From the NCBI RefSeq assembly GCF_051097895.1, contig NZ_CP142525.1:210001-242000 (forward strand): 32,000 nt of DNA, in the 5' to 3' direction. Below the pieces are notes generated by a model. The model saw nothing but the letters and a program-made list of their open reading frames with translations. It was not told the origin of the DNA and did not search any database. Of this stretch, positions 4,164 through 26,651 are shown one piece after another. Source of the stretch: Psychrobacter sp. HD31 (lineage in GTDB: Bacteria; Pseudomonadota; Gammaproteobacteria; Pseudomonadales; Moraxellaceae). The position numbers and the translations under genes were made by a program. Within the stretch, counting starts at the first letter, position 1; every line of letters starts with the position of its first letter.

Positions 4164-5834
4164 ATGCTTAAGGATAAAACAACCGTTTTTTTTGATAAAA
4201 AAAGCCAAGGTGTGCCATACTCTGCCGACTTAACCAGAGTCTTTGCCAGCATTTGCGAGGGCAAATCCAATACCTTATTGCTGGAATCTGCCGAGATTGA
4301 AAGCCGAAATAGCTTAACCAGCTTATTGTTTGTTAACTCAGCCTTACGCATTGTTTGTGATGAGCAAACCGTCACCTTTATTGCACTTAACCAAAATGGT
4401 AACGCATTATTGCCCAGTATCCAGCAGGCTCTTATCGATAAAGCAGAGTCTATTGAACTTGCTTCGCTTGATAATTGCGACACGGATACACCAGCCAATG
4501 ACCGCAAACAGCTTATCGCTACGTTTGCCAGTATCGACAACCGATTAGATGAAGACAGCAAGCTACACGCCCCAACGGTGTTTGATGGTTTGCGAGTGAT
4601 ACAAACCCTGTTTAACAAAGCCAATGCCAACGAGGTCGTTTATACTGGTGGCTTGTTTGCCTACGATGTGGTGCGAGGGTTTATCCCCATGCAGGGCATA
4701 ACCCTTGAGGACGATGGCATTACTTGCCCAGATTATAGTTTTTATTTGGCTGACCAGTTATTAATTTCTGACCACGAAAATCAACAAAGCGTCTTACACA
4801 GTTTCCACTTCTCGGCAGAACCAAGCGTACAAGCTGAAGTGACGCAACAAAGCAATACCATTGTTCAGCAACTAAGCCAGCCATTAAAAGACTTAACCAT
4901 TACGCCAGTGCCAACAGGCGTTAGCGAAAACTACGCTGATGAAGAGTTTATCGACATCATCACACGGTTAAAAACGCATATTTATAATGGGGATGTGTTT
5001 CAGATTGTGCCATCACGCCGTTTTTCGCTTGCTTGCCCAAGTCCGCTGGCAACTTACCATCAGCTTAAACAAAATAACCCAAGTCCTTATATGTTTTATA
5101 TGCAGGATGAGGCATTTACGCTATTTGGTGCCTCACCAGAAAGCTCACTAAAATACACACAAGACAACCGCAAGCTGGAGGTTTATCCGATTGCAGGGTC
5201 GCGCCCACGCGGATTTGACAGCAATGGCAACATTGACCCAGAGCTAGACGCACGTATGGAGCTTGATTTACGCCTTGATAAAAAGGAGCTGGCAGAACAT
5301 TTAATGCTGGTTGACCTTGCCCGCAATGACATTGCCCGAGTTTGTGACAGTGGCACTCGCCAACTAGACAAGCTCATGCAGGTTGACCGCTATTCGCACA
5401 TCATGCACTTGGTATCGAGAGTCACGGGCAAATTACAAGCTGACCTAGATGCCTTACACGCTTATCAAGCCTGTATGAATATGGGCACGCTTACAGGTGC
5501 ACCCAAAATTAAAGCCATGCAACTGATTTATCAGCAAGAAAAACAAAAACGCCATAGTTATGGCGGTGCGGTGGGCTATTTTACCTCAAATGGTGACCTT
5601 GATACTTGTATTGTCATTCGCTCTGCCTTTGTGCAAAATGACATTGCCCATATCCAAGCGGGTTGCGGAGAAGTCCTTGATTCAGACCCGCAATTAGAAG
5701 CAGATGAAACCCGTCATAAAGCAGCGGCTGTGATTAAAGCAATTGTGCAAACCCATCAAGACAATAGCCATCATCAACGCAAACAAAATCAACCTATTAA
5801 CGAAGCACAAGATAAGGAGCAGAACAATGGCTAA
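4164..5834 (+). CDS. trpE: Anthranilate synthase component I
   Basis: Strong collinear similarity to enteric TrpE: LLLESAEIESRN feedback region, FQIVPSRRFSLACPSPL, NPSPYMFYMQD, GASPESSLKY, LMLVDLARND and GTLTGAPK. Start placed at ATG 4164 (SD AAGG 7 nt upstream, N-terminal length like E. coli); the track ORF starts at TTG 4125. The C-terminus has a low-complexity tail. Confidence 0.92.
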   Translation: MLKDKTTVFFDKKSQGVPYSADLTRVFASICEGKSNTLLLESAEIESRNSLTSLLFVNSALRIVCDEQTVTFIALNQNGNALLPSIQQALIDKAESIELASLDNCDTDTPANDRKQLIATFASIDNRLDEDSKLHAPTVFDGLRVIQTLFNKANANEVVYTGGLFAYDVVRGFIPMQGITLEDDGITCPDYSFYLADQLLISDHENQQSVLHSFHFSAEPSVQAEVTQQSNTIVQQLSQPLKDLTITPVPTGVSENYADEEFIDIITRLKTHIYNGDVFQIVPSRRFSLACPSPLATYHQLKQNNPSPYMFYMQDEAFTLFGASPESSLKYTQDNRKLEVYPIAGSRPRGFDSNGNIDPELDARMELDLRLDKKELAEHLMLVDLARNDIARVCDSGTRQLDKLMQVDRYSHIMHLVSRVTGKLQADLDALHAYQACMNMGTLTGAPKIKAMQLIYQQEKQKRHSYGGAVGYFTSNGDLDTCIVIRSAFVQNDIAHIQAGCGEVLDSDPQLEADETRHKAAAVIKAIVQTHQDNSHHQRKQNQPINEAQDKEQNNG

Positions 5835-6456
5835 TATCATCTTTATTGATAATTTTGACTCCTTTACCTATAACTTGGTGGATGAATTTCGGGTGCTTGG
5901 GCATCAAGTGGTGGTTTACCGCAATGATGTTGATTTAGACACCATTACTCAGGCAGTATTGGATAAACCAAATACCCTGCTTGCCTTATCTCCAGGACCT
6001 GGCAACCCCAGCGAAGCAGGCAATCTACTTGCCATCATTGAACGGTTAAAAGACGCAGTGCCAATTTTGGGGATTTGCTTGGGGCATCAGGCGATTATTG
6101 AGGCGTTTGGTGGTACAGTGGTTCACGCAGGGGAGGTGATGCACGGTAAGGTATCGCACATCAAGCATGATGAACAAACGGTATTTAAAGGGTTAAAAAA
6201 CCCAATGCCAGTGGCACGCTATCATTCACTATGTGGTACCAACCTACCGCAAACGCTAACGGTGACTGCCAGTTATGATTACGTTGATGACAATACTAAA
6301 GACACACAAAACATTGTTATGGCAGTCAGGCACAACCGTTTGCCGATTTGTGGTTTTCAGTTTCATCCCGAATCCATTTTAACCTTGCATGGTTCGCAGT
6401 TGTTAAAGCAAACGGTAGACTGGTTGCTTGAGCCGTCCATATCAACACAATCATAA
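5827..6456 (+). CDS. trpG: Anthranilate synthase component II (glutamine amidotransferase)
   Basis: MANIIFIDNFDSFTYNLVDEF..., GICLGHQ catalytic Cys and FQFHPES. SD AAGGAG lies upstream. The ATG overlaps the trpE stop (ATGGCTAA, 8-nt overlap), which suggests translational coupling. The track ORF start at 5743 is an in-frame upstream artefact. Confidence 0.92.
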   Translation: MANIIFIDNFDSFTYNLVDEFRVLGHQVVVYRNDVDLDTITQAVLDKPNTLLALSPGPGNPSEAGNLLAIIERLKDAVPILGICLGHQAIIEAFGGTVVHAGEVMHGKVSHIKHDEQTVFKGLKNPMPVARYHSLCGTNLPQTLTVTASYDYVDDNTKDTQNIVMAVRHNRLPICGFQFHPESILTLHGSQLLKQTVDWLLEPSISTQS

Positions 6457-6478
6457 TATATTAACAACAGGAATCATC

Positions 6479-7492
6479 ATGCACACCGTCGACCCACTTT
6501 TAGAAAAACTCTTTGACGCCCAAACACTCACCCAAAAAGAAAGCCAAACGTTTTTTACTGCCATCGTCAAAGGCGAATTAAGCAACGAACAGCTCGCAGG
6601 GGCATTGCTTGCACTGAAGATACGAGAAGAAACCACCGAAGAAATCGCAGGGGCAGTGATTGCCTTACAACAAGATGCCAAGGCGTTTGCCTCACCAACG
6701 TATGCGTTTGCCGACATCGTTGGGACAGGGGGAGATGGGGCAAATACCATCAATATTTCTACCGCCAGTGCCTTAGTCGGGGCATCCTTATCTGACTATG
6801 GGGTTAAAGTTGCCAAACATGGTAACCACGGCGTATCGAGTCAAAGTGGCTCAAGCGATGTGCTCACAGCATTAGGCGTGAACATCAATGCAGAGCCTAG
6901 CATCGCTCGCCAAGCCTTAGACAAGGTGGGTATTTGTTTTTTATTTGCGCAAAAGTACCATCTAGGCTATAAAGAAATTGTGCCCGTACGCCAAGCACTC
7001 AAAACCCGTACCATCTTTAATAATTTGGGTCCTTTAATCAATCCAGCCAAACCAAAACGTCAACTGCTTGGGGTCTATAGCCCAGATTTGATTGATATGT
7101 ATGCCAACATTGCGGTTGCCTTGGGTCATGAACACAGCCTTGTGGTGCATGGCAGTGGCTTGGATGAAGTGGCATTACATGGTGCGACTCAAGTAGCAGA
7201 AATTAAAAATGGCAAAATTGAGCATTATCAAGTCACGCCAACCGATTTTGGGTTTAGCCAACAACCCCTGTCTGTTTTGGCAGGCGGTACACCCACCGAA
7301 AATGCCAAAGACATCATTGATATGCTAAGTGGTCAAGGTAATGAACACCATGCTCAAGCGGTTGCTATGAACACCGCCATGCTAATGAAATTATTTGGTC
7401 ATGATGATATTAAACAATCAGCAAGCATGATTATGGAGCATTTGGCGAGTGGGAAAGCGATGGCAACACTTGAGCAATTGAGAAGTTACTAA
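6479..7492 (+). CDS. trpD: Anthranilate phosphoribosyltransferase
   Basis: DIVGTGGDGANTINISTA, KHGNHGVSSQSGSSDVL and NPAKP motifs. Start taken at ATG 6479 (MHTVDPLLEKL). Confidence 0.92.
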   Translation: MHTVDPLLEKLFDAQTLTQKESQTFFTAIVKGELSNEQLAGALLALKIREETTEEIAGAVIALQQDAKAFASPTYAFADIVGTGGDGANTINISTASALVGASLSDYGVKVAKHGNHGVSSQSGSSDVLTALGVNINAEPSIARQALDKVGICFLFAQKYHLGYKEIVPVRQALKTRTIFNNLGPLINPAKPKRQLLGVYSPDLIDMYANIAVALGHEHSLVVHGSGLDEVALHGATQVAEIKNGKIEHYQVTPTDFGFSQQPLSVLAGGTPTENAKDIIDMLSGQGNEHHAQAVAMNTAMLMKLFGHDDIKQSASMIMEHLASGKAMATLEQLRSY

Positions 7493-7536
7493 TCCATGCT
7501 AAAAAATCGAAAGGTCAAAAGACAAAGAGTATTGAC

Positions 7537-8952
7537 ATGAGCCAACAAGACACCCCAACCATTCTAAAGCAAATCGTTGCCGATAAACGAGCATGGATAG
7601 CCAACAAACAAGCTGAGTTTCCATTGGAACAATTCCAATCGGAGATTGTGCCGAGTGAGCGTGATTTTTATACCGCTTTGCAGATAGGCATTGCTGGCAA
7701 ACATAGCCCTGCTTATATCCTAGAATGCAAAAAAGCCTCGCCATCTAAAGGGCTGATTCGTGCTGACTTTTCTCCCACACAGATTGCCAATATCTATAAA
7801 CACTACGCCAGTGCCATTTCTGTACTCACTGATGAAAAATACTTTCAGGGGAGTTTTGACTATATCAAACAGGTTCGTGAAGTTGCTCATCAGCCCATAC
7901 TTTGTAAAGATTTTATCGTGAGTCCCTATCAGGTGTATTTGGCTCGTTATCATCAGGCAGATGCCATTTTATTGATGTTATCTGTGTTAACGGATGAGGA
8001 ATATCTCCAACTTACTGAGCTTGCCCATGACTTGGGTATGGGCGTTTTGACCGAATCAGCAACCGAAGACGAGGTGCAACGTGCCATCAATTTAGATGCC
8101 AAAGTCATCGGCATTAACAACCGCAATCTACACGACTTGAGCGTGAACATTAATCGTACAGCACAGCTTGCCCAACCAATTCCCTCCGATAGAATTATCA
8201 TCAGTGAATCGGGAATAAAAAACCACCAGCATATTAAGCAAATACAACCGTATGCCAACGGCTTTCTTATCGGCAGTAGCTTGATGGCAGAGGAAGACCT
8301 TAATGCTGCTGTCCGTCGAGTGGTGTTTGGTGAAAATAAGGTGTGCGGATTAACACGGGCTGACGATGCCAAATCTGCCTATGAAGTGGGTGCGTATTTT
8401 GGTGGGTTGATATTTGCTGAGAAATCTAAGCGTAAGTTGACCTTGGAGCAAGCAAAACAGATTGTCAATTCTGCACCACTTAAGTTTGTTGCTGTCTTTC
8501 AAAACCAATCGATTGAACAAATCTGTGACGTGGCGGAATCTTTAAATCTGTTTGCGGTGCAGTTACATGGTGATGAAGATAACGCCTTTGTGAATGAATT
8601 GCGTGAAAGATTGGCAAAACCTGTACAGATTTGGAAAGCAATCAGTGTAGACATAGAGAGATCTGAGTTTATCGTGCCTGATTTTCCACAGGTTGACCGC
8701 TTTGTTATTGATAGCAAAGTCGGCAGTCAAACAGGTGGCACTGGTAAGACGTTTGATTGGTCACTTGTTCCTGCGGAGATTAAAGCAAAAAGTATGCTGG
8801 CAGGTGGCTTAAATATTGATAATATCAGCGATGCCAATGCCCAAGGATTTTTCGGGTTAGATATTAACTCTGGAGCGGAGAGTAGCGTGGGTGTGAAGGA
8901 TTTGGCTAAATTAAAATGCATTTTTCAGAGAACTCTACAATACGAAACCTAA
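7537..8952 (+). CDS. trpCF: Bifunctional indole-3-glycerol-phosphate synthase / phosphoribosylanthranilate isomerase (fused TrpC-TrpF)
   Basis: 471 aa. The N-terminal half is IGPS (ILECKKASPSKGLIR, GINNRNL). The C-terminal half is PRAI (KVCGLTRADDA, QLHGDE). This is the same domain order as E. coli TrpC. Confidence 0.92.
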   Translation: MSQQDTPTILKQIVADKRAWIANKQAEFPLEQFQSEIVPSERDFYTALQIGIAGKHSPAYILECKKASPSKGLIRADFSPTQIANIYKHYASAISVLTDEKYFQGSFDYIKQVREVAHQPILCKDFIVSPYQVYLARYHQADAILLMLSVLTDEEYLQLTELAHDLGMGVLTESATEDEVQRAINLDAKVIGINNRNLHDLSVNINRTAQLAQPIPSDRIIISESGIKNHQHIKQIQPYANGFLIGSSLMAEEDLNAAVRRVVFGENKVCGLTRADDAKSAYEVGAYFGGLIFAEKSKRKLTLEQAKQIVNSAPLKFVAVFQNQSIEQICDVAESLNLFAVQLHGDEDNAFVNELRERLAKPVQIWKAISVDIERSEFIVPDFPQVDRFVIDSKVGSQTGGTGKTFDWSLVPAEIKAKSMLAGGLNIDNISDANAQGFFGLDINSGAESSVGVKDLAKLKCIFQRTLQYET

Positions 8953-8967
8953 TTAAGGAAACTAATA

Positions 8968-10161
8968 ATGAATACGAAACTTCCTTCCTACTTTGGCGAA
9001 TATGGCGGTATGTTTGTGCCTGAAATTTTGGTACCTGTACTCTGTGAGTTGGAACAGGCGTTTATTGATGCTCAAAATGATGAAAGCTTTAAGCAGGAAT
9101 TTCATGAGCTGTTAAAAAATTATGCAGGTCGTCCAACCGCATTGACACTGTGCAAAAACTTGACCAAAGGCACAAATGCTAAGTTGTATTTAAAACGTGA
9201 AGACTTGCTCCACGGTGGGGCTCATAAAACCAATCAGGTGCTTGGACAAGCATTGCTCGCCTTACGCATGGGTAAAACAGAAATCATTGCCGAAACAGGG
9301 GCTGGACAACATGGGACAGCCACAGCGTTGGCATGTGCGTTGCTGGGATTAAAATGCCGAGTGTATATGGGTGCAAAAGACATTGAGCGTCAGTCGCCTA
9401 ATGTCTTTCGTATGAAGCTGATGGGGGCAGAAGTCATTGCAGTGGATAAAGGCTCAAGGTCATTAAAAGATGCTTGTTGTGAGGCGATGCGTGATTGGGC
9501 TGCAAACTATGATAAAGCCCATTATTTATTAGGGACAGCAGCAGGACCACACCCATTTCCGACCATTGTGCGTGAGTTTCAGCGGATGATTGGCGAGGAG
9601 ACAAAAGCCCAAATGCTAGAGCGTGAAGGGCGTTTGCCAGATACCATTGTCGCCTGTGTGGGTGGTGGCTCAAATGCGATAGGTATGTTTGCTGACTTTG
9701 TTGATGAAAAAGGCGTAGAGTTGATAGGAGTTGAGCCTGCGGGCAAGGGAGTGGATACCGATGAACATGGTGCGCCGCTAACACATGGACGTACGGGCAT
9801 TTACTTTGGTATGAAGTCGCCATTGATGCAAGACGACGATGGACAAATTGATGAGTCGTATTCGATATCAGCAGGTCTGGATTTTCCGTCTGTCGGTCCT
9901 GAGCATGCTCATTTACATGCTATTGGTCGGGTGACCTATGGTTCGATTACCGATGATGAGGCATTGGATGCCTTTAGCTTATTGGCTCGAAAAGAAGGAA
10001 TTATCCCAGCATTAGAATCATCACACGCCCTTGCGTATGCTATGAAGCTTATTCATGACAACCCCGGCAAAGAACAAATTATTGTGGTCAATCTATCAGG
10101 GCGGGGCGATAAAGATATATTTACCGTTGATAAATTTTTAGATAATGAGATTCAGCAATAG
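8968..10161 (+). CDS. trpB: Tryptophan synthase beta chain
   Basis: [24 protein letters not shown] (PLP lysine) and GGGSNAIG. Confidence 0.95.
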
Positions 10162-10170
10162 GAGAATGAT

Positions 10171-11031
10171 ATGAAAAAAGTCACGACCAGATTTAATACC
10201 ATGCTTGCTGAATTAGCCCAAAAAAACAATAGCAAGGGCAATCCTAGTAGCAATGAAAACAGCATTGGAGAAGGGGCATTTGTACCCTTTGTTACCCTAT
10301 GCGACCCTGACTTAGAACGCTCGTTTGATATCATTTGTACACTTGTAAATAATGGCGCCGATGCACTAGAGCTTGGGTTGCCATTTTCTGACCCATTGCT
10401 CGATGGTGAAGTCATTCAGGCGGCTAACCAGCGTGCGTTATCGGCAGGGCATAGCACCGAAGACAGTTTTAAACTACTTGAGAGAGTGCGTGCTAAATAT
10501 CCTGATACGCCTATCAGCCTGCTACTCTGTGCCAATTTGATTTTTGCTCAGACTTTAGATGGGTTTTATAAACGCTGTGCGGATATTGGCGTGGATGCGG
10601 TACTGGTGGCAGATGTACCATTGATGGAGTGTTTGCCATATTGTCAGTCTGCTGTTAAGCATGGCGTACAACCTGTGTTAATCTGCCCACCTAACGGTAC
10701 GGAGCAAACCATCGCTCAAGTTGCGAGTCTAACCCAAGGCTACACCTACCTTGTCTCACGTGCTGGGGTGACTTCGGCGGATAATCAAGAATCTGCGGGT
10801 AATCTTGATGAATTGGTAAGTAAACTCAAAGCCAACAACTCTGCTCCAATATTGCAAGGTTTTGGTATTGCTAAGCCAGAGCAAGTCAAAGATGCCCTAG
10901 ATAATGGCTGTGCAGGAGCAATTTCTGGCTCGGCAATTGTGCGTATTATCGAAAACAACCTTGATGACCATCAGTCGACTTTACAAAATCTGGGTGAGTT
11001 TGTAAGGCATATGAAGCAAGCAACAACTTAG
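10171..11031 (+). CDS. trpA: Tryptophan synthase alpha chain
   Basis: [29 protein letters not shown] and ISGSAIV. It carries an extra Asn/Ser-rich insertion of ~15 aa near the N-terminus relative to E. coli TrpA. Confidence 0.92.
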
Positions 11032-11296
11032 AATTACCTTTATTTTGTGTGATATTTGCTTTCTAACATTCATACTTATTAAAGCAAAACAACTAAATCT
11101 TTTCAGCCAATCCTGCTGTCCGCTCATATCTGCTTGTTTGCATGGGGCGTTGGCTAAGGTTTGGCGTGTCGCTTGCTACCACGTCGCCACACCAAACCAA
11201 GCCACCGCAATCCCACTCAACCAAGCAGGATAACCGCTACCATCAGGGCTAAACCGCACCTATGGTGAGGTTGGTTAAAATATTGCAAATATAATG

Positions 11297-16449: not shown

Positions 16450-17983
<1,534 letters not shown>

Positions 17984-18043
17984 ACGAAAGCATTCAATTG
18001 GCAAGAATTCACAACAAGTTGTTTTTTAAGAAGTAAGCTATAA

Positions 18044-18120
18044 GGGTCTATAGCTCAGCTGGTTAGAGCACCGTGTTGATAACGCGGGGGTCATAAGTTC
18101 AAGTCTTATTAGACCCACCA
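18044..18120 (+). tRNA. tRNA-Ile (GAT)
   Basis: GGGTCTATAGCTCAGCTGGTTAGAGCA...TTGATAA anticodon loop...GGTTCAAGTC-type T arm...TAGACCCACCA. 77 nt with an encoded CCA. Confidence 0.95.
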
Positions 18121-18121
18121 T

Positions 18122-18197
18122 GGGGCCATAGCTCAGTTGGTAGAGCGCCTGCCTTGCACGCAGGAGGTCAGGAGTTCGACTCTCCTTGGCTCCACCA
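18122..18197 (+). tRNA. tRNA-Ala (TGC)
   Basis: GGGGCCATAGCTCAGTTGGTAGAGCGCCTGCCTTGCACGCAGGAGGTCAGGAGTTCGACTCTCCTTGGCTCCACCA. 76 nt, with the G3:U70 identity pair. Only 1 nt separates it from tRNA-Ile. Confidence 0.95.
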
Positions 18198-18510
18198 TTA
18201 ATTTACAGATATAAGTAATTTGGGAAGATTATTTATATCTGTGAAAGCAGAAAGAACATGATGACTTGAAGAGAGCATCATAAACTATTTAACAACATAG
18301 AAATGAGTCTGGGTTAAACACACTGTTCCAACAAGAATGTGTTTAACCTGATAGTTAACGGAATGACATTGTAATGTTATCCCACCGTTAACTATCGAAA
18401 AGTAAAGAGAACTGAATCAAGCGCGTTATTTATTGGAAGATAGATAACAACACAAATGGTGATATCGTTAATTAAATTACCTATACATTGCAAACTATTT
18501 TGGATTGTAT

Positions 18511-21360
<2,850 letters not shown>

Positions 21361-21503
21361 ACAATACCAAAATGGTTTATATAGTTAATATAATTTCGAT
21401 ATCATCATAAGCTTGATATCAGATAATAATCTTGAAAGTCGAAAGACATATATAAAACTCATTTCTACTAGCAACCTAGTCGGTTGCTGTTGTTAAAACC
21501 CCT

Positions 21504-21620
21504 TCGCTGACGATAATAGCAAGATGGAACCACCTGATCCCTTCCCGAACTCAGAAGTGAAACGTCTTCGCGCCAATGGTAGTGTGGTTCGCCCATGTGA
21601 GAGTAGGTCATCGTCAGCTC
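21504..21620 (+). rRNA. rrf: 5S ribosomal RNA
   Basis: Helix I is GCTGACGA/TCGTCAGC. The conserved core CCGAACTCAGAAGTGAAACG and GGTAGTGTGG...CCCATGTGAGAGTAGG is present. Confidence 0.93.
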
Positions 21621-21648
21621 CTTATTCGTAACCCAACCGGTTACTCCA

Positions 21649-21686
21649 AAACCGCCCCGCTCACTGAGTGGGGCGGTTTTTTTGCT
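21649..21686 (+). terminator. rrn operon rho-independent terminator
   Basis: AAACCGCCCCgctcactgagtGGGGCGGTTTTTTT. Confidence 0.85.
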
Positions 21687-21745
21687 TGGTTTTTTATTGT
21701 TGTTTTTATCTAAATCTCAACGTATTAGTAAAACAATACTTTATT

Positions 21746-21764
21746 GATAAAGATTATCATTAGC
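21746..21764. promoter_or_regulatory. Fur box in the promoter of the TonB-dependent receptor gene
   Basis: GATAAAGATTATCATTAGC matches the Fur consensus GATAATGATAATCATTATC at 16/19 positions. It lies immediately upstream of a TATAAT (21767-21772). Confidence 0.65.
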
Positions 21765-21834
21765 GTTATAATGCGTTTTCAATTAGTAGTTCTAACAATT
21801 ATTTCTCCCTTAAAAATTCAAGTATGAGCAAAAA

Positions 21835-24800
21835 ATGAAACAGTTAACTACCCCAAAAGTTCTTTTAGCTGCCTCAATTAGTATGTTAATGCATGCTGCA
21901 GCTGCACAAACACCATTTAATGAAAATCAAGAAGAGATGCCATCAGCAACCTTAGAAACGATTGAGTTAGTTGCAAAGCGTGATTTACTCTTGACTGAGA
22001 TATCAGAAGAGGATGTTTATGATAAAAATGAGTCCAGTACTTATAAAGACAAAGAAGAGTTAGAACGTTTTATGGGCGAGTCACCAGCAGACATTTTTAA
22101 AGGCATGATAGGTGTAGAAAGTGGAGACGCTCGTAACAGTGGTGCAATTGATCCTAATGTAAGAGGGATTCAAGGTCAAGGACGAGTTCCTGTCACTATT
22201 GATGGTACGGAACAGGCAATTACAGTTTATCGTGGTTATAATGGTGCAAATAACCGTAACTACATAGATCCATTGTTAATTAGTAACGTAAAAGTTAGCA
22301 AAGGTCCTTCTATGGAAAAAGGAATTCGTTCATCGGTTGGGGGAGCTGTTACCATTAATACGTTAAATGTTGATGATGTATTAATAGGTGGTGAAAATTT
22401 TGGTTTTAGTATCAAAGGCATAGTTGGTAATAATGCTACAGATGCCAATGCTATTGACTATAATAGTGTGGATGTGATACATGCAGAAGATAACGACTTG
22501 TATCCAGTTCAAGATCAGTACAATCCGGATTTATATGAAGAAGGTAGTTACCAAAGGCAATCTGCTGAGCAGTTACGTGATATTTTTTTAAACCTCAGTG
22601 GAGAATTGCCAAGAAAATCTAACCTTGGTATTGAAACGAGTAAAGTAGCAGATAATCGCAGTAATCCTCTTTCTATTGGTGATAAGGCTGTTCGTATTGC
22701 TATGGCAGGAAGAAGTGAGATAGGAGGTATTAAAGTAGATGGTTTAGCCGCTTATACTCGTCGTAATCGTGGTAACTATTATGCTGGTAAGCATAATAGT
22801 GATGATTATCGTACTGATGTTGATAGAAATAACCGTAAGACAGGTGATTTTACTGCGTACATGGCAGATGTTTATCTGCCTGGTAGAGAAGTACCAAATA
22901 CTTCAAACGAAAGTGACTCTTACTTGCTCAAAGGGTCTATCCGTCCTAGTGATGATCAAGCAATTCAACTTGGTTATCGCCATAGTGAAACAACGTATGG
23001 TGATATTATGCCGTCAAGGGTTGCTGGTGAAAGCATAAAAGGTGGTCTTTATGATGTTACTGGACGCGTTCCACAGTGGCCATTAAGTAATGTCGAAATT
23101 GATGCTGCTAATATTAAATATCGCTTTGATCCCAAAAATAATAAATGGGTAGATTTAACAGCCAATCTTTGGCAAACAGAAAGTCAAATAAATAGTAATA
23201 ATTCAGGTGGGTATCCTTATTTTCTAGTTGGTCCACCCAGTTACTCAATATTTAGTAATCCTGATGCATTGACTGCTTATATTGATGCATTAACTGATAG
23301 ATATGGTGACAGGTTCCCTGAAGTTGCTAACTGCGGACAAAATCCATACAACTTATATAATCCTTATACTTTGTGTGGTCAGTTGAGTACGCTTTACGGT
23401 GCCAATACGATAAAAAAAGCGGATGCATATATGCAAACCCATAATGATAGAGTTGGCATTAGTTTAAGTAATACTGCACAAATTACTGATCAGCTAGATG
23501 CAACCGTATCTGGAAATTGGCAAAAAGAGAAATTAGAAACTGATGAAATACAAGATAAAGCAGCATTCAGCTTTGTCGCTTTACCTCGTAAGGGACGCCG
23601 TGAGGAATGGAATATTGGTACAGTTCTGAATTGGCAACCATCAGACAAGTGGCGAGTACAAGCAGGGCTAGACTATAAAGAGTATTGGACTTTTGATGAT
23701 TTAGTAAATGAAGGTAGAAAAGAGGGGAAATATCCTAATAAAGGGCAAAAGCTATCTGGTATTAAAATAAATTATTATGAGAAAGCCAATCAAACCATTC
23801 AAGATGCCTATCAGTCTTATAAAAATGGTGATTCTAGTTACTATGACTATACTAACACCTTTAGAAATGAAACAGGTAGCTATCCTAACTATGGTTCTGC
23901 ACAGGGTGAGGTGAGTGATATTGAAGGTGGAAATGAAGGCACCATATACCTTAAGAAAGATTTTGTTTGGCAGGCGGATGATAAAGGTAATCTGAGCCGA
24001 GATAGCAACATATTCTTTAATGGCGAAGCTAAGGCAAATGGTTGGCTTCCTCCTGCTAAGCTAAAAGAGATTGGTACTTCAGGCGTATTAAAGGGTAGTG
24101 GAGGTGGCATCCCTATTTATGAAGACTCAACAGTAGGCGATCGACTCCAATCTTTACAAAAAGTAAAAGATCATGCTTTAGATCCTAGTCTGGCGTTGTC
24201 GTATAAAATTAATGACGGTGCGCGTGTTTATGCTCGTTATGCTCAAACCACACGTATGCCAAGCATATATGAGGCAACCTTAGGTTTTTCTTTATTACCT
24301 GGTGGTTTTGGAGAACATGTTGATGACTCTAGTCCTGTTAAACCAGAAAAAGGTACTAACTTTGAGATTGGCTATGTACAAGACTTAACTCCTTGGTTGA
24401 AAGATGCTCGTCATGCTGATTTTAAATTAGCATTCTTCAACAACCGTATTGATGATGTGATAGATCGTAATGCTGAGTTTAAATTACAAAATTTTGATCA
24501 TCAAACCATACAGGGGCTGGAAGTACAAAGTAGATATGATAATGGCGATTGGTTTGGCGATTTAAGTTTTACTCACAACTTTAAAAATGAAGTATGCGAT
24601 GCACAATATGCCATGCAAGAAGACCCTTATTATGGGCAAGTACCAGATTGTGTTAAATATGGTTTTAATTTTGGATATTTACAAAACATGGGACAGCCAG
24701 ATTGGCAAACTGATTTGACATTAGGTAAGCGTTTGATGGATGAGAAGCTTACCATTGGTACACGATTACATTATCATTCTGGTGCTGATAAAGAAATGAA

Positions 24801-25032
24801 TGTCAGCAATTATGGTAATAGTAATGAAGGTGTCTCTATATTTAATACGCCATTAGATTGGTCAGATGTTCTAACAGTTGATGGTTTTATGAACTATAAA
24901 GTAAATGATAATATGTTTTTTGAGTTAACTGGAGCTAATTTAACAGATCAATACTATATTGATCCATTGAGTCGATCGTTGATGCCAGCACCTGGAAGAA
25001 GCGTAACCGCGAAAGCAGAGTTTAAGTTTTAG
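21835..25032 (+). CDS. TonB-dependent outer-membrane receptor (large, 1065 aa; substrate unknown, probably iron/heme-related)
   Basis: Signal peptide ...MHAAAAQ, a TonB-box-like ETIELVA, a plug-domain motif (VRGIQGQGRVPVTIDGTEQ...VKVSKGPS), a long beta-barrel region and a C-terminal ...AKAEFKF with terminal Phe. A Fur box lies upstream. Confidence 0.9.
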   Translation: MKQLTTPKVLLAASISMLMHAAAAQTPFNENQEEMPSATLETIELVAKRDLLLTEISEEDVYDKNESSTYKDKEELERFMGESPADIFKGMIGVESGDARNSGAIDPNVRGIQGQGRVPVTIDGTEQAITVYRGYNGANNRNYIDPLLISNVKVSKGPSMEKGIRSSVGGAVTINTLNVDDVLIGGENFGFSIKGIVGNNATDANAIDYNSVDVIHAEDNDLYPVQDQYNPDLYEEGSYQRQSAEQLRDIFLNLSGELPRKSNLGIETSKVADNRSNPLSIGDKAVRIAMAGRSEIGGIKVDGLAAYTRRNRGNYYAGKHNSDDYRTDVDRNNRKTGDFTAYMADVYLPGREVPNTSNESDSYLLKGSIRPSDDQAIQLGYRHSETTYGDIMPSRVAGESIKGGLYDVTGRVPQWPLSNVEIDAANIKYRFDPKNNKWVDLTANLWQTESQINSNNSGGYPYFLVGPPSYSIFSNPDALTAYIDALTDRYGDRFPEVANCGQNPYNLYNPYTLCGQLSTLYGANTIKKADAYMQTHNDRVGISLSNTAQITDQLDATVSGNWQKEKLETDEIQDKAAFSFVALPRKGRREEWNIGTVLNWQPSDKWRVQAGLDYKEYWTFDDLVNEGRKEGKYPNKGQKLSGIKINYYEKANQTIQDAYQSYKNGDSSYYDYTNTFRNETGSYPNYGSAQGEVSDIEGGNEGTIYLKKDFVWQADDKGNLSRDSNIFFNGEAKANGWLPPAKLKEIGTSGVLKGSGGGIPIYEDSTVGDRLQSLQKVKDHALDPSLALSYKINDGARVYARYAQTTRMPSIYEATLGFSLLPGGFGEHVDDSSPVKPEKGTNFEIGYVQDLTPWLKDARHADFKLAFFNNRIDDVIDRNAEFKLQNFDHQTIQGLEVQSRYDNGDWFGDLSFTHNFKNEVCDAQYAMQEDPYYGQVPDCVKYGFNFGYLQNMGQPDWQTDLTLGKRLMDEKLTIGTRLHYHSGADKEMNVSNYGNSNEGVSIFNTPLDWSDVLTVDGFMNYKVNDNMFFELTGANLTDQYYIDPLSRSLMPAPGRSVTAKAEFKF

Positions 25033-25076
25033 TAATATATAATTGTCTCATTCTAGAAATTAGAATTGCTTCTCAT

Positions 25077-25126
25077 CAATGGTAGTGTGCTTTTCCCATG
25101 TGAGAGTAGATGGTAATCGTCAGCTC
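25077..25126 (+). pseudogene. Truncated 5S rRNA fragment (3' ~50 nt only)
   Basis: CAATGGTAGTGTGcttttCCCATGTGAGAGTAGatggtaATCGTCAGCTC aligns with 5S positions 21575-21620. The 5' two-thirds of 5S are absent. Confidence 0.8.
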
Positions 25127-25153
25127 ATTATTCCGTAACCTAACAGTTACACC

Positions 25154-25190
25154 AAAACCACCCCTTGCGTTAGTGAGGGGCGGTTTTTTT
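25154..25190 (+). terminator. Second copy of the rrn-type terminator
   Basis: AAAACCACCCCTtgcgttagtgAGGGGCGGTTTTTTT, homologous to 21649-21686. Confidence 0.75.
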
Positions 25191-25304
25191 GGGCTTAGTT
25201 TTATATCAATTTAGTTTTTGCTACTTATAATTTAACAATAAGCACTTTTACATCGCTATTGCTGCCTGATACTATTCTATTGTATTAGCTTAAATAAAGG
25301 TTAT

Positions 25305-25340
25305 TAAAAAAGCCTCTAAATATTCTTAGAGGCTTTTTTA
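25305..25340. terminator. Bidirectional terminator hairpin (serves the thiolase gene on the minus strand)
   Basis: AAAAAAGCCTCTAAatattcTTAGAGGCTTTTTT. Confidence 0.8.
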
Positions 25341-25355
25341 AAGATAAACCTTATC

Positions 25356-26651
25356 TTATCTTTCTAAAATACAAGTAACGCCTTGACCACCTGCGGCACA
25401 AATAGAAATAAGAGCGCGACCACCACCTTTTTGATCAAGTAATTTAGCGGCAGTGGCAAGAATACGCCCACCAGTGGCCGCAAAAGGGTGACCAGCTGCT
25501 AGTGATGAACCATTGACATTAAGTTTACTTCTATCGATTGAGCCTAATGGTGCCTCTAGTCCTAATCTTTCTTGACAGAAAGTATCATCTTCCCATGCTT
25601 TAAGTGTAGATAGAACTTGTGAAGCAAAAGCTTCATGGATTTCATAAAAATCAAAATCTTGTAAAGTTAATCCAGCACGTTGCAACATTCGTGGAACAGC
25701 ATAAGCTGGCGCCATTAATAACCCTTCTGTCACACCAGATTTGCCGATAAAGTCTACTGCTGCTGTTTCATGATGCGTAATATAAGCTAAAGGACGTAAG
25801 CCATTTTGTTCTGCCCATTCTTCACTACCAATTAAAACACATGAAGCACCATCTGTTAATGGCGTTGAGTTAGCGGCTGTCATCGTTGGATTTGCATTCT
25901 TTTTACCAAAAACAGGCTTAAGTGTTGCAAGTTTTTCTAGGCTGCTATCTGGGCGTAAGTTGTTGTCACGGGTTAAGCCTTTAAATGGTGTCATTAAATC
26001 TGCCATAAAGCCTTCTTCGTATGCACGAGCTAAGTTTTTGTGGCTATTAACTGCTAGCTCATCTTGCTCTTCACGTGTGACACCCCACTCAAGTGTGGTG
26101 ATTGCTTGATGATCACCCATTGATAACTTGGTACGCGGTTCTCCATTTTGCGGTGGATCAATTAAATCCTTTGGATTAATACCCATCAATGCTTGCATGC
26201 GTTGTTTGCCAGTTTTAGCAGCACCAAGTTTAATAATGGCTTTACGTAAGCTATCACCAACAGCAATTGGAGCATCAGAAGTGGTATCAACACCACCTGT
26301 GATGGCAGAATCAATAATGCCTAACGCAATTTTATTTGCTGCTGCAAATGTTGACTGTAAACCAGTACCACATGCTTGTGAAATATCATAGGCAGGTGTT
26401 GCAGGTGATAGGGCGGTGTTTAATGCTGCTTCACGTGTTAGATTAAGGTCACGACTATGTTTTAACACAGCACCTGCAACCACTTCGCCAATTTGCTTAC
26501 CTTGCAAATCATAACGTTCTACAAGACCATTTAATGCGGCTGTTAGCATATCAAGGTTACTTGCATTGGCATAAGGACCATTTGAACGTGCAAATGGAAT
26601 GCGGTTTGCACCCAAAATGGCAACTTTGCGAATCGTATTATTGTCTGACAT
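25356..26651 (-). CDS. Acetyl-CoA C-acyltransferase (thiolase family)
   Basis: 431 aa. Active-site Cys region DISQACGTGLQS, the C-terminal thiolase signatures NVNGSSLAAGHPFAATG and CAAGGQG. Confidence 0.9.
   Translation of the reverse strand: MSDNNTIRKVAILGANRIPFARSNGPYANASNLDMLTAALNGLVERYDLQGKQIGEVVAGAVLKHSRDLNLTREAALNTALSPATPAYDISQACGTGLQSTFAAANKIALGIIDSAITGGVDTTSDAPIAVGDSLRKAIIKLGAAKTGKQRMQALMGINPKDLIDPPQNGEPRTKLSMGDHQAITTLEWGVTREEQDELAVNSHKNLARAYEEGFMADLMTPFKGLTRDNNLRPDSSLEKLATLKPVFGKKNANPTMTAANSTPLTDGASCVLIGSEEWAEQNGLRPLAYITHHETAAVDFIGKSGVTEGLLMAPAYAVPRMLQRAGLTLQDFDFYEIHEAFASQVLSTLKAWEDDTFCQERLGLEAPLGSIDRSKLNVNGSSLAAGHPFAATGGRILATAAKLLDQKGGGRALISICAAGGQGVTCILER

Follow-up and report, generated by a model that had tools for sequence, protein, structure and literature searches.

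A receptor gene between two copies of an rRNA operon tail in Psychrobacter sp. HD31, a possible scar of rrn-anchored recombination

What brought a gene for a TonB-dependent receptor to the distal end of a ribosomal RNA (rrn) operon, between the intact 5S gene and a second, truncated copy of the 5S 3′ part? We addressed this question in a 32,000-nucleotide stretch of DNA from Psychrobacter sp. HD31 (contig NZ_CP142525.1, positions 210,001 to 242,000 of the forward strand), which we call the window and whose own numbering is used below. The organism is a Psychrobacter-like member of the Moraxellaceae with a 2.17 Mb genome and is probably host-associated. From the letters of the window, an earlier note (the original prediction) had proposed two histories: insertion or exchange of a receptor module by recombination at the conserved rrn 3′ end, or disruption of an operon with tandem 5S genes. 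Our answer, which we offer tentatively, is that the locus may be a scar left where the rrn operon ends by a one-sided, rrn-anchored recombination event, and that it carries no machinery of its own.

The rrn tail is present twice in the window. The first copy belongs to an intact operon (Table 1), whose 5S gene scores 95.3 bits against Rfam family RF00001 and is followed directly by a 9-nt trailer (TCCTTATTC), a small hairpin, a terminator and ~20 nt of T-rich sequence. When 21506-21730 was compared with the whole window by blastn, a single other copy was found, at 25077-25206, with 81.2% identity over 133 columns (E=3.8e-23). The local alignment of the copies scored 81, and 500 shuffles gave 11.2 +/- 1.7 with a maximum of 19. 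Thus, pairwise alignment confirms that the duplication of the 5S 3′ part, hairpin and terminator is real and the similarity significant; the ~85% identity estimated by eye in the original prediction was slightly high, as we measured 77-81% with gaps and ~90% without them. Across 5S nt 69-114, 42/46 aligned bases are identical, copy 2 having 4 substitutions and a 3-nt insertion; across the trailer, hairpin and terminator, 55/62 are identical with 7 gap columns (69 columns in all); and in the ~20 nt past the T-run similarity is weak. The longest block identical between the copies is 15 nt.

Copy 2 is a 5′-truncated 5S pseudogene fragment that keeps its own tail. To the left of 25077, similarity to 5S is 13/21, the chance level, so copy 2 has a sharp left edge at 5S nt ~69 (or perhaps nt 61) and is without nt 1-68. 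An Rfam scan of 24800-25500 returned zero RF00001 matches for copy 2, even at E<=10. Its trailer (TCATTATTC) is followed, as in copy 1, by a small GTAAC(C)/(G)GTTAC hairpin and then by the GC-rich stem and U-run of an intrinsic terminator, which the terminator scan detected in both copies. The predicted fold energy of copy 1 is -33.7 kcal/mol (z -5.7) and that of copy 2 is -26.4 kcal/mol (z -3.9); no shuffle folded as well.

Table 1. Positions of the rrn operon, the two copies of its tail, the receptor gene and the adjacent downstream features in the window
Feature	Position	Strand	Evidence or remark
Intact rrn operon: 16S, tRNA-Ile(GAT), tRNA-Ala(TGC), 23S, 5S	16450..21619	+	Rfam gathering-threshold matches, ARAGORN
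16S	16450-17983	+	Rfam
tRNA-Ile/Ala	18044-18197	+	Rfam
23S	18511-21360	+	Rfam
5S	21506-21619	+	Rfam
Repeat copy 1: 5S nt 69-114, trailer, hairpin, intrinsic terminator, ~20 nt beyond	21574..21706	+	blastn, alignment, terminator scan, fold
Copy 1 small hairpin	21628-21644		6 bp
Copy 1 terminator	21648-21683		15-bp stem (21648-21680), 9 GC; seven-T run ending 21683
Sigma-70-type promoter, TTGATA-17-TATAAT	21744..21772	+	promoter scan, 11/12 consensus positions
Putative Fur box between the -35 and -10 elements	21746..21764	- (strand of match)	17/19 (2-3 mismatches) to GATAATGATAATCATTATC; 0.04 expected by chance
TonB-dependent receptor gene, intact, 1065 aa, heme/hemophore type	21835..25032	+	ORF, Pfam
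Junction interval, receptor stop codon to truncated 5S	25033..25076	+	5S similarity falls to chance left of 25077
Repeat copy 2: 5S pseudogene fragment, trailer, hairpin, terminator	25077..25206	+	blastn, alignment, terminator scan, fold
Copy 2 5S fragment (nt 69-114)	25077-25124		
Copy 2 hairpin	25135-25150		
Copy 2 terminator	25152-25192		
Perfect 16-bp palindromic bidirectional terminator after thiolase gene	25304..25341	.	inverted repeat
Thiolase gene, convergent	25356-26651	-	

What lies between the copies? As the original prediction stated, a promoter with a Fur box and one gene make up the sole content (promoter scan, Fur match, Pfam), the 1065-codon receptor gene being the only open reading frame (ORF) there. 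Its product belongs to the TonB-dependent receptor superfamily: it contains a Plug domain (PF07715, E=6.8e-11) and a beta-barrel domain (PF00593, TonB_dep_Rec_b-barrel, E=9.2e-24), both above gathering scores, and its translation begins with a signal peptide (MKQLTTPKVLLAASISMLMHAAAAQ) and ends in ...AEFKF, with a terminal aromatic residue. The best NCBIfam families, TIGR01785 and TIGR01786, matched below their cutoffs (200.1 vs 316.85 bits and 166.8 vs 323.75 bits, respectively), and the closest solved structures, HasR and PhuR, matched in the plug region only. A regular-expression search for a FRAP/NPNL box, a crude test of low weight, found NPDL alone, at residue 230 and outside the expected barrel region. 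Compositional analysis, which the original prediction had suggested for the receptor, revealed no foreign signature. GC content, GC content at third codon positions (GC3) and codon usage are indistinguishable from those of neighbouring genes (GC3 of 0.237 vs 0.227-0.248 for thiolase and the adjacent short-chain dehydrogenase/reductase (SDR) gene), which points to a source of similar composition.

Homologues of the receptor indicate what this gene has been separated from. The nearest ones, with 54-58% amino-acid identity, come from uncultured Psychrobacter-like organisms, in three of which the receptor gene is the first of an operon with the order receptor, Lcl_C, Lcl_C, HphA, Lcl_C, Slam (L001, L002 and L080; Slam was seen in L001 and L002, and the L080 contig stops at HphA). 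These operons lie away from rrn, and a search of four loci with receptor homologues (L001, L002, L079, L080) revealed no sequence resembling 5S. The promoter and Fur-box module (TTGATAATGATTATCATTAG) is also present upstream of the homologous receptors in these same four loci, and the next operon gene begins 12-70 nt past the receptor stop codon in the relatives. The window keeps the promoter and first gene of the hemophore operon alone, cut no more than 45 nt past the stop codon and joined to nt 69 of 5S; the ORFs and Pfam matches of the 32-kb window include no gene for HphA, Slam or Lcl_C. A blastn extension hinted that 25033-25071 might be homologous to sequence 3′ of the homologues, and we dropped this candidate when a multiple alignment proved unconvincing.

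A Slam-dependent hemophilin system of this kind, HphA-HphR-Slam, is known in Acinetobacter baumannii (PMC8560813). The window receptor resembles HphR/HasR-type receptors (A. baumannii, PMC8560813; Serratia HasR, PDB 3CSL) in its Plug domain and 22-strand-type barrel, in its best NCBIfam families (heme/hemoglobin), in its similarity to the HasR and PhuR structures, in the Fur box of its promoter and in having homologues of 54-58% identity whose genes adjoin those for the HphA hemophilin and Slam. It differs from the HphR system in being an orphan without HphA, Slam or Lcl_C in the window, in scoring below the TIGR01785 and TIGR01786 cutoffs and in yielding no FRAP/NPNL box in the simple pattern search; its heme-type ligand is putative.

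The downstream flank shows how the locus differs among relatives. The thiolase gene that faces copy 2 encodes a protein 84-89% identical to Psychrobacter proteins. In a relative represented by a metagenome-assembled genome (MAG; L004, 87% nucleotide identity), the order carB-greA-SDR-thiolase is kept, homology ends at window position 25327 and an unrelated gene then follows. Strain L085, which likewise has carB-greA-SDR-thiolase, is 97-99% identical to the window from 30493 to ~25300, ~70% identical just past the thiolase terminator and without a match beyond ~25235; its contig stops 18 nt before the expected start of the copy 2 terminator. Each of four further relatives has a different gene after thiolase, and no rrn operon, 5S remnant or receptor gene adjoins thiolase in the thiolase-orthologue contexts of the relatives examined. 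The original prediction had allowed that an arrangement shared by all rrn operons and all relatives would be an old, fixed rearrangement. We found it to be lineage-specific, because the relatives' receptor homologues reside in hemophore operons off rrn and the thiolase neighbours differ throughout; as judged by these comparisons, the 5S/receptor/partial-5S order is not an old fixed feature of the clade. As an observation in its own right, the DNA past the thiolase terminator (~25235-25330) differs in all relatives examined (L004, L005, L077, L078, L085), and this segment appears to be a local rearrangement or recombination hotspot.

Do other rrn operons end in the same way? A scan of a genome collection with ATCGTCAGCTCNTTATTC returned 70 stretches, mostly chance matches (an estimated ~70 were expected in 596 Gb), and was the source of the Moraxellaceae rrn tails that we compared; a metagenome scan with the lineage-specific hairpin pattern gave 4 matches, all chance. 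All of the Moraxellaceae tails have in common the end of 5S and a TC(C/A)TTATTC trailer, after which each has its own terminator. None of the ten other tails compared in this family has the hairpin and terminator type that both copies in the window share, which argues that the second tail came from the host lineage or from a closely related one. A single 5S was seen at each of the ten other Moraxellaceae loci that gave a 5S match in an Rfam scan. As a separate observation, the 9 nt after 5S (window 21620-21627 and 25125-25133) are invariant from Psychrobacter to Acinetobacter and Aquirhabdus, with differing terminators beyond, and this conserved trailer is probably a 5S 3′-processing signal.

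Three events among ~11 tails, the window included, share one anatomy: an intact 5S with its tail, an insert, and a 5′-truncated or decayed 5S with a tail of its own. In Psychrobacter sp. JB385 (L027), the 5S end and a terminator are followed by one M20 peptidase gene, a decayed full-length 5S (41.5 bits) and a second terminator, all inside 4.4 kb; at the orthologous locus, P. pacificensis (L018) and strain MF31 (L007) have 0.2-0.75 kb in place of this segment. In uncultured Psychrobacter 2-645A-Z (L032) and a Psychrobacter MAG (L037), a 5S and terminator are followed by ~140 nt, a 5S-end/trailer remnant of ~22-27 nt (by blastn) and a second terminator; these two loci appear to share one older event. 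The left end of the remnant falls at 5S nt ~1, ~69 or ~100 in the three events, and the 5S 3′ end is always kept. The three events are independent.

Several features of these loci deserve description for themselves. The JB385 pseudo-5S (NZ_FUKN01000012.1, 2085-2198) is a mosaic, its first 68 nt being 73% identical to the functional 5S and nt 69-114 being 96% identical (Fisher p=0.002), with the change-over near the 5S position at which copy 2 of the window begins; partial gene conversion or a crossover hybrid could have produced it. Retention of a loop E/helix IV (L25-binding) module in copy 2 was a candidate considered by inspection and set aside; the JB385 pseudo-5S has a substitution in the motif. 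The ~140-nt insert (L032 323-452; L037 150-294) has two conserved hairpins, in one of which AATCC...GGATT is kept in both species, and is closed at its end by a TGACCT/AGGTCA stem formed with the 5S-end remnant. In L032 it gave no credible Rfam match and held no hidden 5S; it could be a small structured RNA. Elsewhere in uncultured Psychrobacter 2-645A-Z (L044, NODE_1, 1951-1975), a lone 22-nt copy of the 5S end and trailer (TCATCGTCAGCTCCTTATTCGT) has no rRNA nearby and on the opposite strand (GAATAAGGAGCTGACGATG) gives a Shine-Dalgarno sequence and start codon to an ORF; this copy may be a relic of another rrn-end rearrangement.

What event could produce such a scar? We envision that donor DNA with the order rrn, 5S, tail, receptor would recombine homologously within rrn, and that its far end would be joined by illegitimate recombination inside the resident 5S, either by homology-facilitated illegitimate recombination (HFIR) or by an equivalent one-sided (Campbell-like) event. 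The joint would push the 3′ part of the resident 5S and its tail downstream, where the displaced copy would decay as a pseudogene while its hairpin and terminator stay foldable. In the resulting locus, the receptor gene would be transcribed from its own promoter, which its Fur box suggests is repressed by Fur and active when iron is limiting; the strong terminator of copy 1 would insulate it from rrn transcription. The copy 2 hairpin and terminator would end the receptor transcript, with the bidirectional terminator of thiolase as backup, and copy 2 is thus probably now the receptor gene's terminator.

The original HFIR work reportedly concerned natural transformation of Acinetobacter, and HFIR in natural transformation has also been described for Streptococcus pneumoniae and Pseudomonas stutzeri. 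That members of the Moraxellaceae are naturally transformable would make such an event plausible here. HFIR has been described, too, for E. coli conjugation (PMC3240628). The locus resembles HFIR products in having one homologous anchor (rrn), one illegitimate joint near the end of homology, an unrelated captured gene and a host from a naturally competent family. The illegitimate joint must be inside 25033-25076, and the rrn anchor and this single joint interval both fit an HFIR product. A candidate CTTC microhomology (25069-25072 vs 21566-21569) is too short to count. The locus would differ from described products in a joint that lies inside the anchor and leaves a partial duplicate of it.

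Recombination with the rrn 3′ end as homology arm, the first of the two histories in the original prediction, is the best-fitting reading of three independent Psychrobacter cases in which the left ends of the remnants lie inside or at the start of 5S. Left ends within this 115-nt gene would be expected if the joint forms where homology between donor and recipient runs out. Rrn-anchored recombination also explains why the cargo differs between the cases and why it is an operon fragment in the window.

Five observations weigh on the other side. First, neither an empty site (a single 5S, a tail of the copy 2 type and thiolase) nor a donor state (the receptor directly behind an rrn tail) was found, the former in the contexts of relatives that we examined. 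Second, the close strain L085 (97-99%) is without a recognisable copy 2 flank in the 90 nt available. Third, the partial duplication of the anchor is our extension of HFIR, and the literature search gave no direct example of it; for 5S-fragment scars or 5S-targeted islands, nothing relevant appeared among the publications listed. Fourth, the rrn-anchored model leaves the mosaic pseudo-5S of JB385 unexplained. Finally, a paralogous operon since lost could have left copy 2 as its tail, because the identity between paralogous tails within other genomes, 72-97%, spans that between copies 1 and 2.

This last point leads to the strongest rival, which we consider rather unlikely. Two co-oriented rrn operons would have flanked the hemophore operon, and perhaps more genes, and one illegitimate deletion from the receptor stop codon to nt 68 of the downstream 5S would have left the last 46 nt of that 5S and its tail as a relic of the second rrn unit during genome reduction. 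One illegitimate joint suffices for this history, the genome is small (2.17 Mb) and the hemophore operon breaks off behind the receptor gene, its first. In addition, paralogous rrn tails are 84% alike in MF31, 72% in P. pacificensis and 97% in Aquirhabdus, comparable to the identity of about 76-81%, counting gaps, between copies 1 and 2; like these copies, paralogous tails keep their stems, vary in their loops and lose homology just past the T-run. If the locus is such a relic, it would be an ordinary by-product of genome reduction. By contrast, in three independent cases the right-hand endpoint falls within the 115-nt 5S or at its first bases rather than anywhere in the 5-kb operon, and endpoints clustered in this way are unlikely for random deletions. 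Moreover, the 2-645A-Z/MAG case would require two rrn operons ~140 nt apart, and no relative examined has rrn beside thiolase. We therefore favour one-sided, rrn-anchored recombination over deletion.

An improbable alternative is that a ~135-nt rrn tail was duplicated in tandem in situ, perhaps as a break was repaired, and that a 3.35-kb promoter-receptor fragment was captured at the joint, or that a circle bearing the tail fragment and the receptor integrated in Campbell fashion. Direct repeats do flank a minimal single-gene unit, and substitutions are about as frequent in the tail (11%) as in the 5S part (9%), as fits one duplication. The copies, however, differ by ~10% substitutions and several indels, far above the 1-3% between the window and L085, which apparently has no such flank, making a recent local duplication unlikely. 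Two illegitimate joints as well as a duplication would be required, and we found no circle, plasmid copy or second integrated copy.

The second history in the original prediction, a disrupted tandem-5S operon, is unlikely as a simple origin and finds no support here. The first 5S is already followed by a trailer and a strong terminator, that terminator forms part of the repeat unit, and ten other loci have a single 5S. E. coli rrnD, an rrn operon with two 5S genes, is alike in having two 5S-related sequences on the same strand at the operon end; the window differs in its strong terminator after the first 5S, in the 3.4 kb between the copies and in the second being a truncated pseudogene.

Could the unit itself be mobile? 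The original prediction had suggested that the module might move between rrn loci, and our searches lend this idea no support. No second integrated instance, circular form or recombinase was found. There is no integrase among the ORFs of the window, and the receptor is the only gene between the copies; we also found no terminal inverted repeats and, at up to 3 mismatches, no pdif site (XerC-6 nt-XerD). A plasmid search gave 5S or generic receptor matches only, mostly from mislabelled chromosomes, and no plasmid carries the module. RecA-type recombination normally needs more than 15 nt of identity, the length of the longest identical block between the copies, so homologous excision or rrn-to-rrn shuttling would not be expected today. 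Nothing shows that the locus is a mobile element. Weakest of all is a site-specific islet that would have targeted 5S as islands target the 3′ ends of tRNA and tmRNA genes, restored the 3′ part of its target and since lost its integrase, for which the topology (acquired DNA between an intact RNA gene upstream and, downstream, a direct repeat made up of the displaced 3′ part of that gene) is island-like but which is very improbable given a 5S rRNA target, the absence of an integrase or any gene besides the receptor, ~130-nt repeats that include a terminator and are 81% identical with no long identical core, the absence of pdif-like sites, and a crossover at 5S nt ~1, ~69 and ~100 in the three cases, which a site-specific enzyme would not vary.

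Three features elsewhere in the window complete the description. Positions 4500-11000, including trpCF, trpB and trpA (7537-11031), have 43-47% GC, compared with 35-40% for most of the remaining window except the rrn operon. Just downstream of trpA, 11105-11254 on the minus strand match Flavo-1 RNA (RF01705) with 49.4 bits against a gathering threshold of 42; this family is normally reported from Bacteroidota, and in a gammaproteobacterium the match may be spurious or may represent a relative not yet recognised. A thiamine pyrophosphate (TPP) riboswitch at 2039-2160 on the minus strand (57 bits), upstream of the minus-strand ORF 853-1950, looks like an ordinary thiamine-biosynthesis leader.

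For the organism, the locus means that a stand-alone, apparently iron-regulated heme receptor has been kept, with the remainder of the hemophore operon absent from the locus; the receptor gene itself is ordinary and probably useful. There is no sign of a new kind of element; of greatest interest among the secondary results are the 5S 3′ remnants that recur downstream of rrn operons in Psychrobacter. A broader reading, which we hold to be doubtful, is that the last ~115 nt of rrn in Psychrobacter, and perhaps in other competent Moraxellaceae, may be a recurrent, recombinase-free capture site: rrn-anchored transforming DNA would bring in the donor's downstream genes, the joint would form inside the resident 5S, and the product would be an intact 5S, cargo and a displaced 5S 3′ fragment with a re-used terminator. 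If so, the site would be a 5S analogue of tRNA-gene islands, through which accessory genes would be exchanged between strains and between rrn loci. In competent bacteria, the most conserved sequence of the genome would then also serve as a site where accessory genes can land, which would help to explain the variability of rrn flanks, and 5S 3′ fragments downstream of rrn would provide a simple signature for tracing such events.

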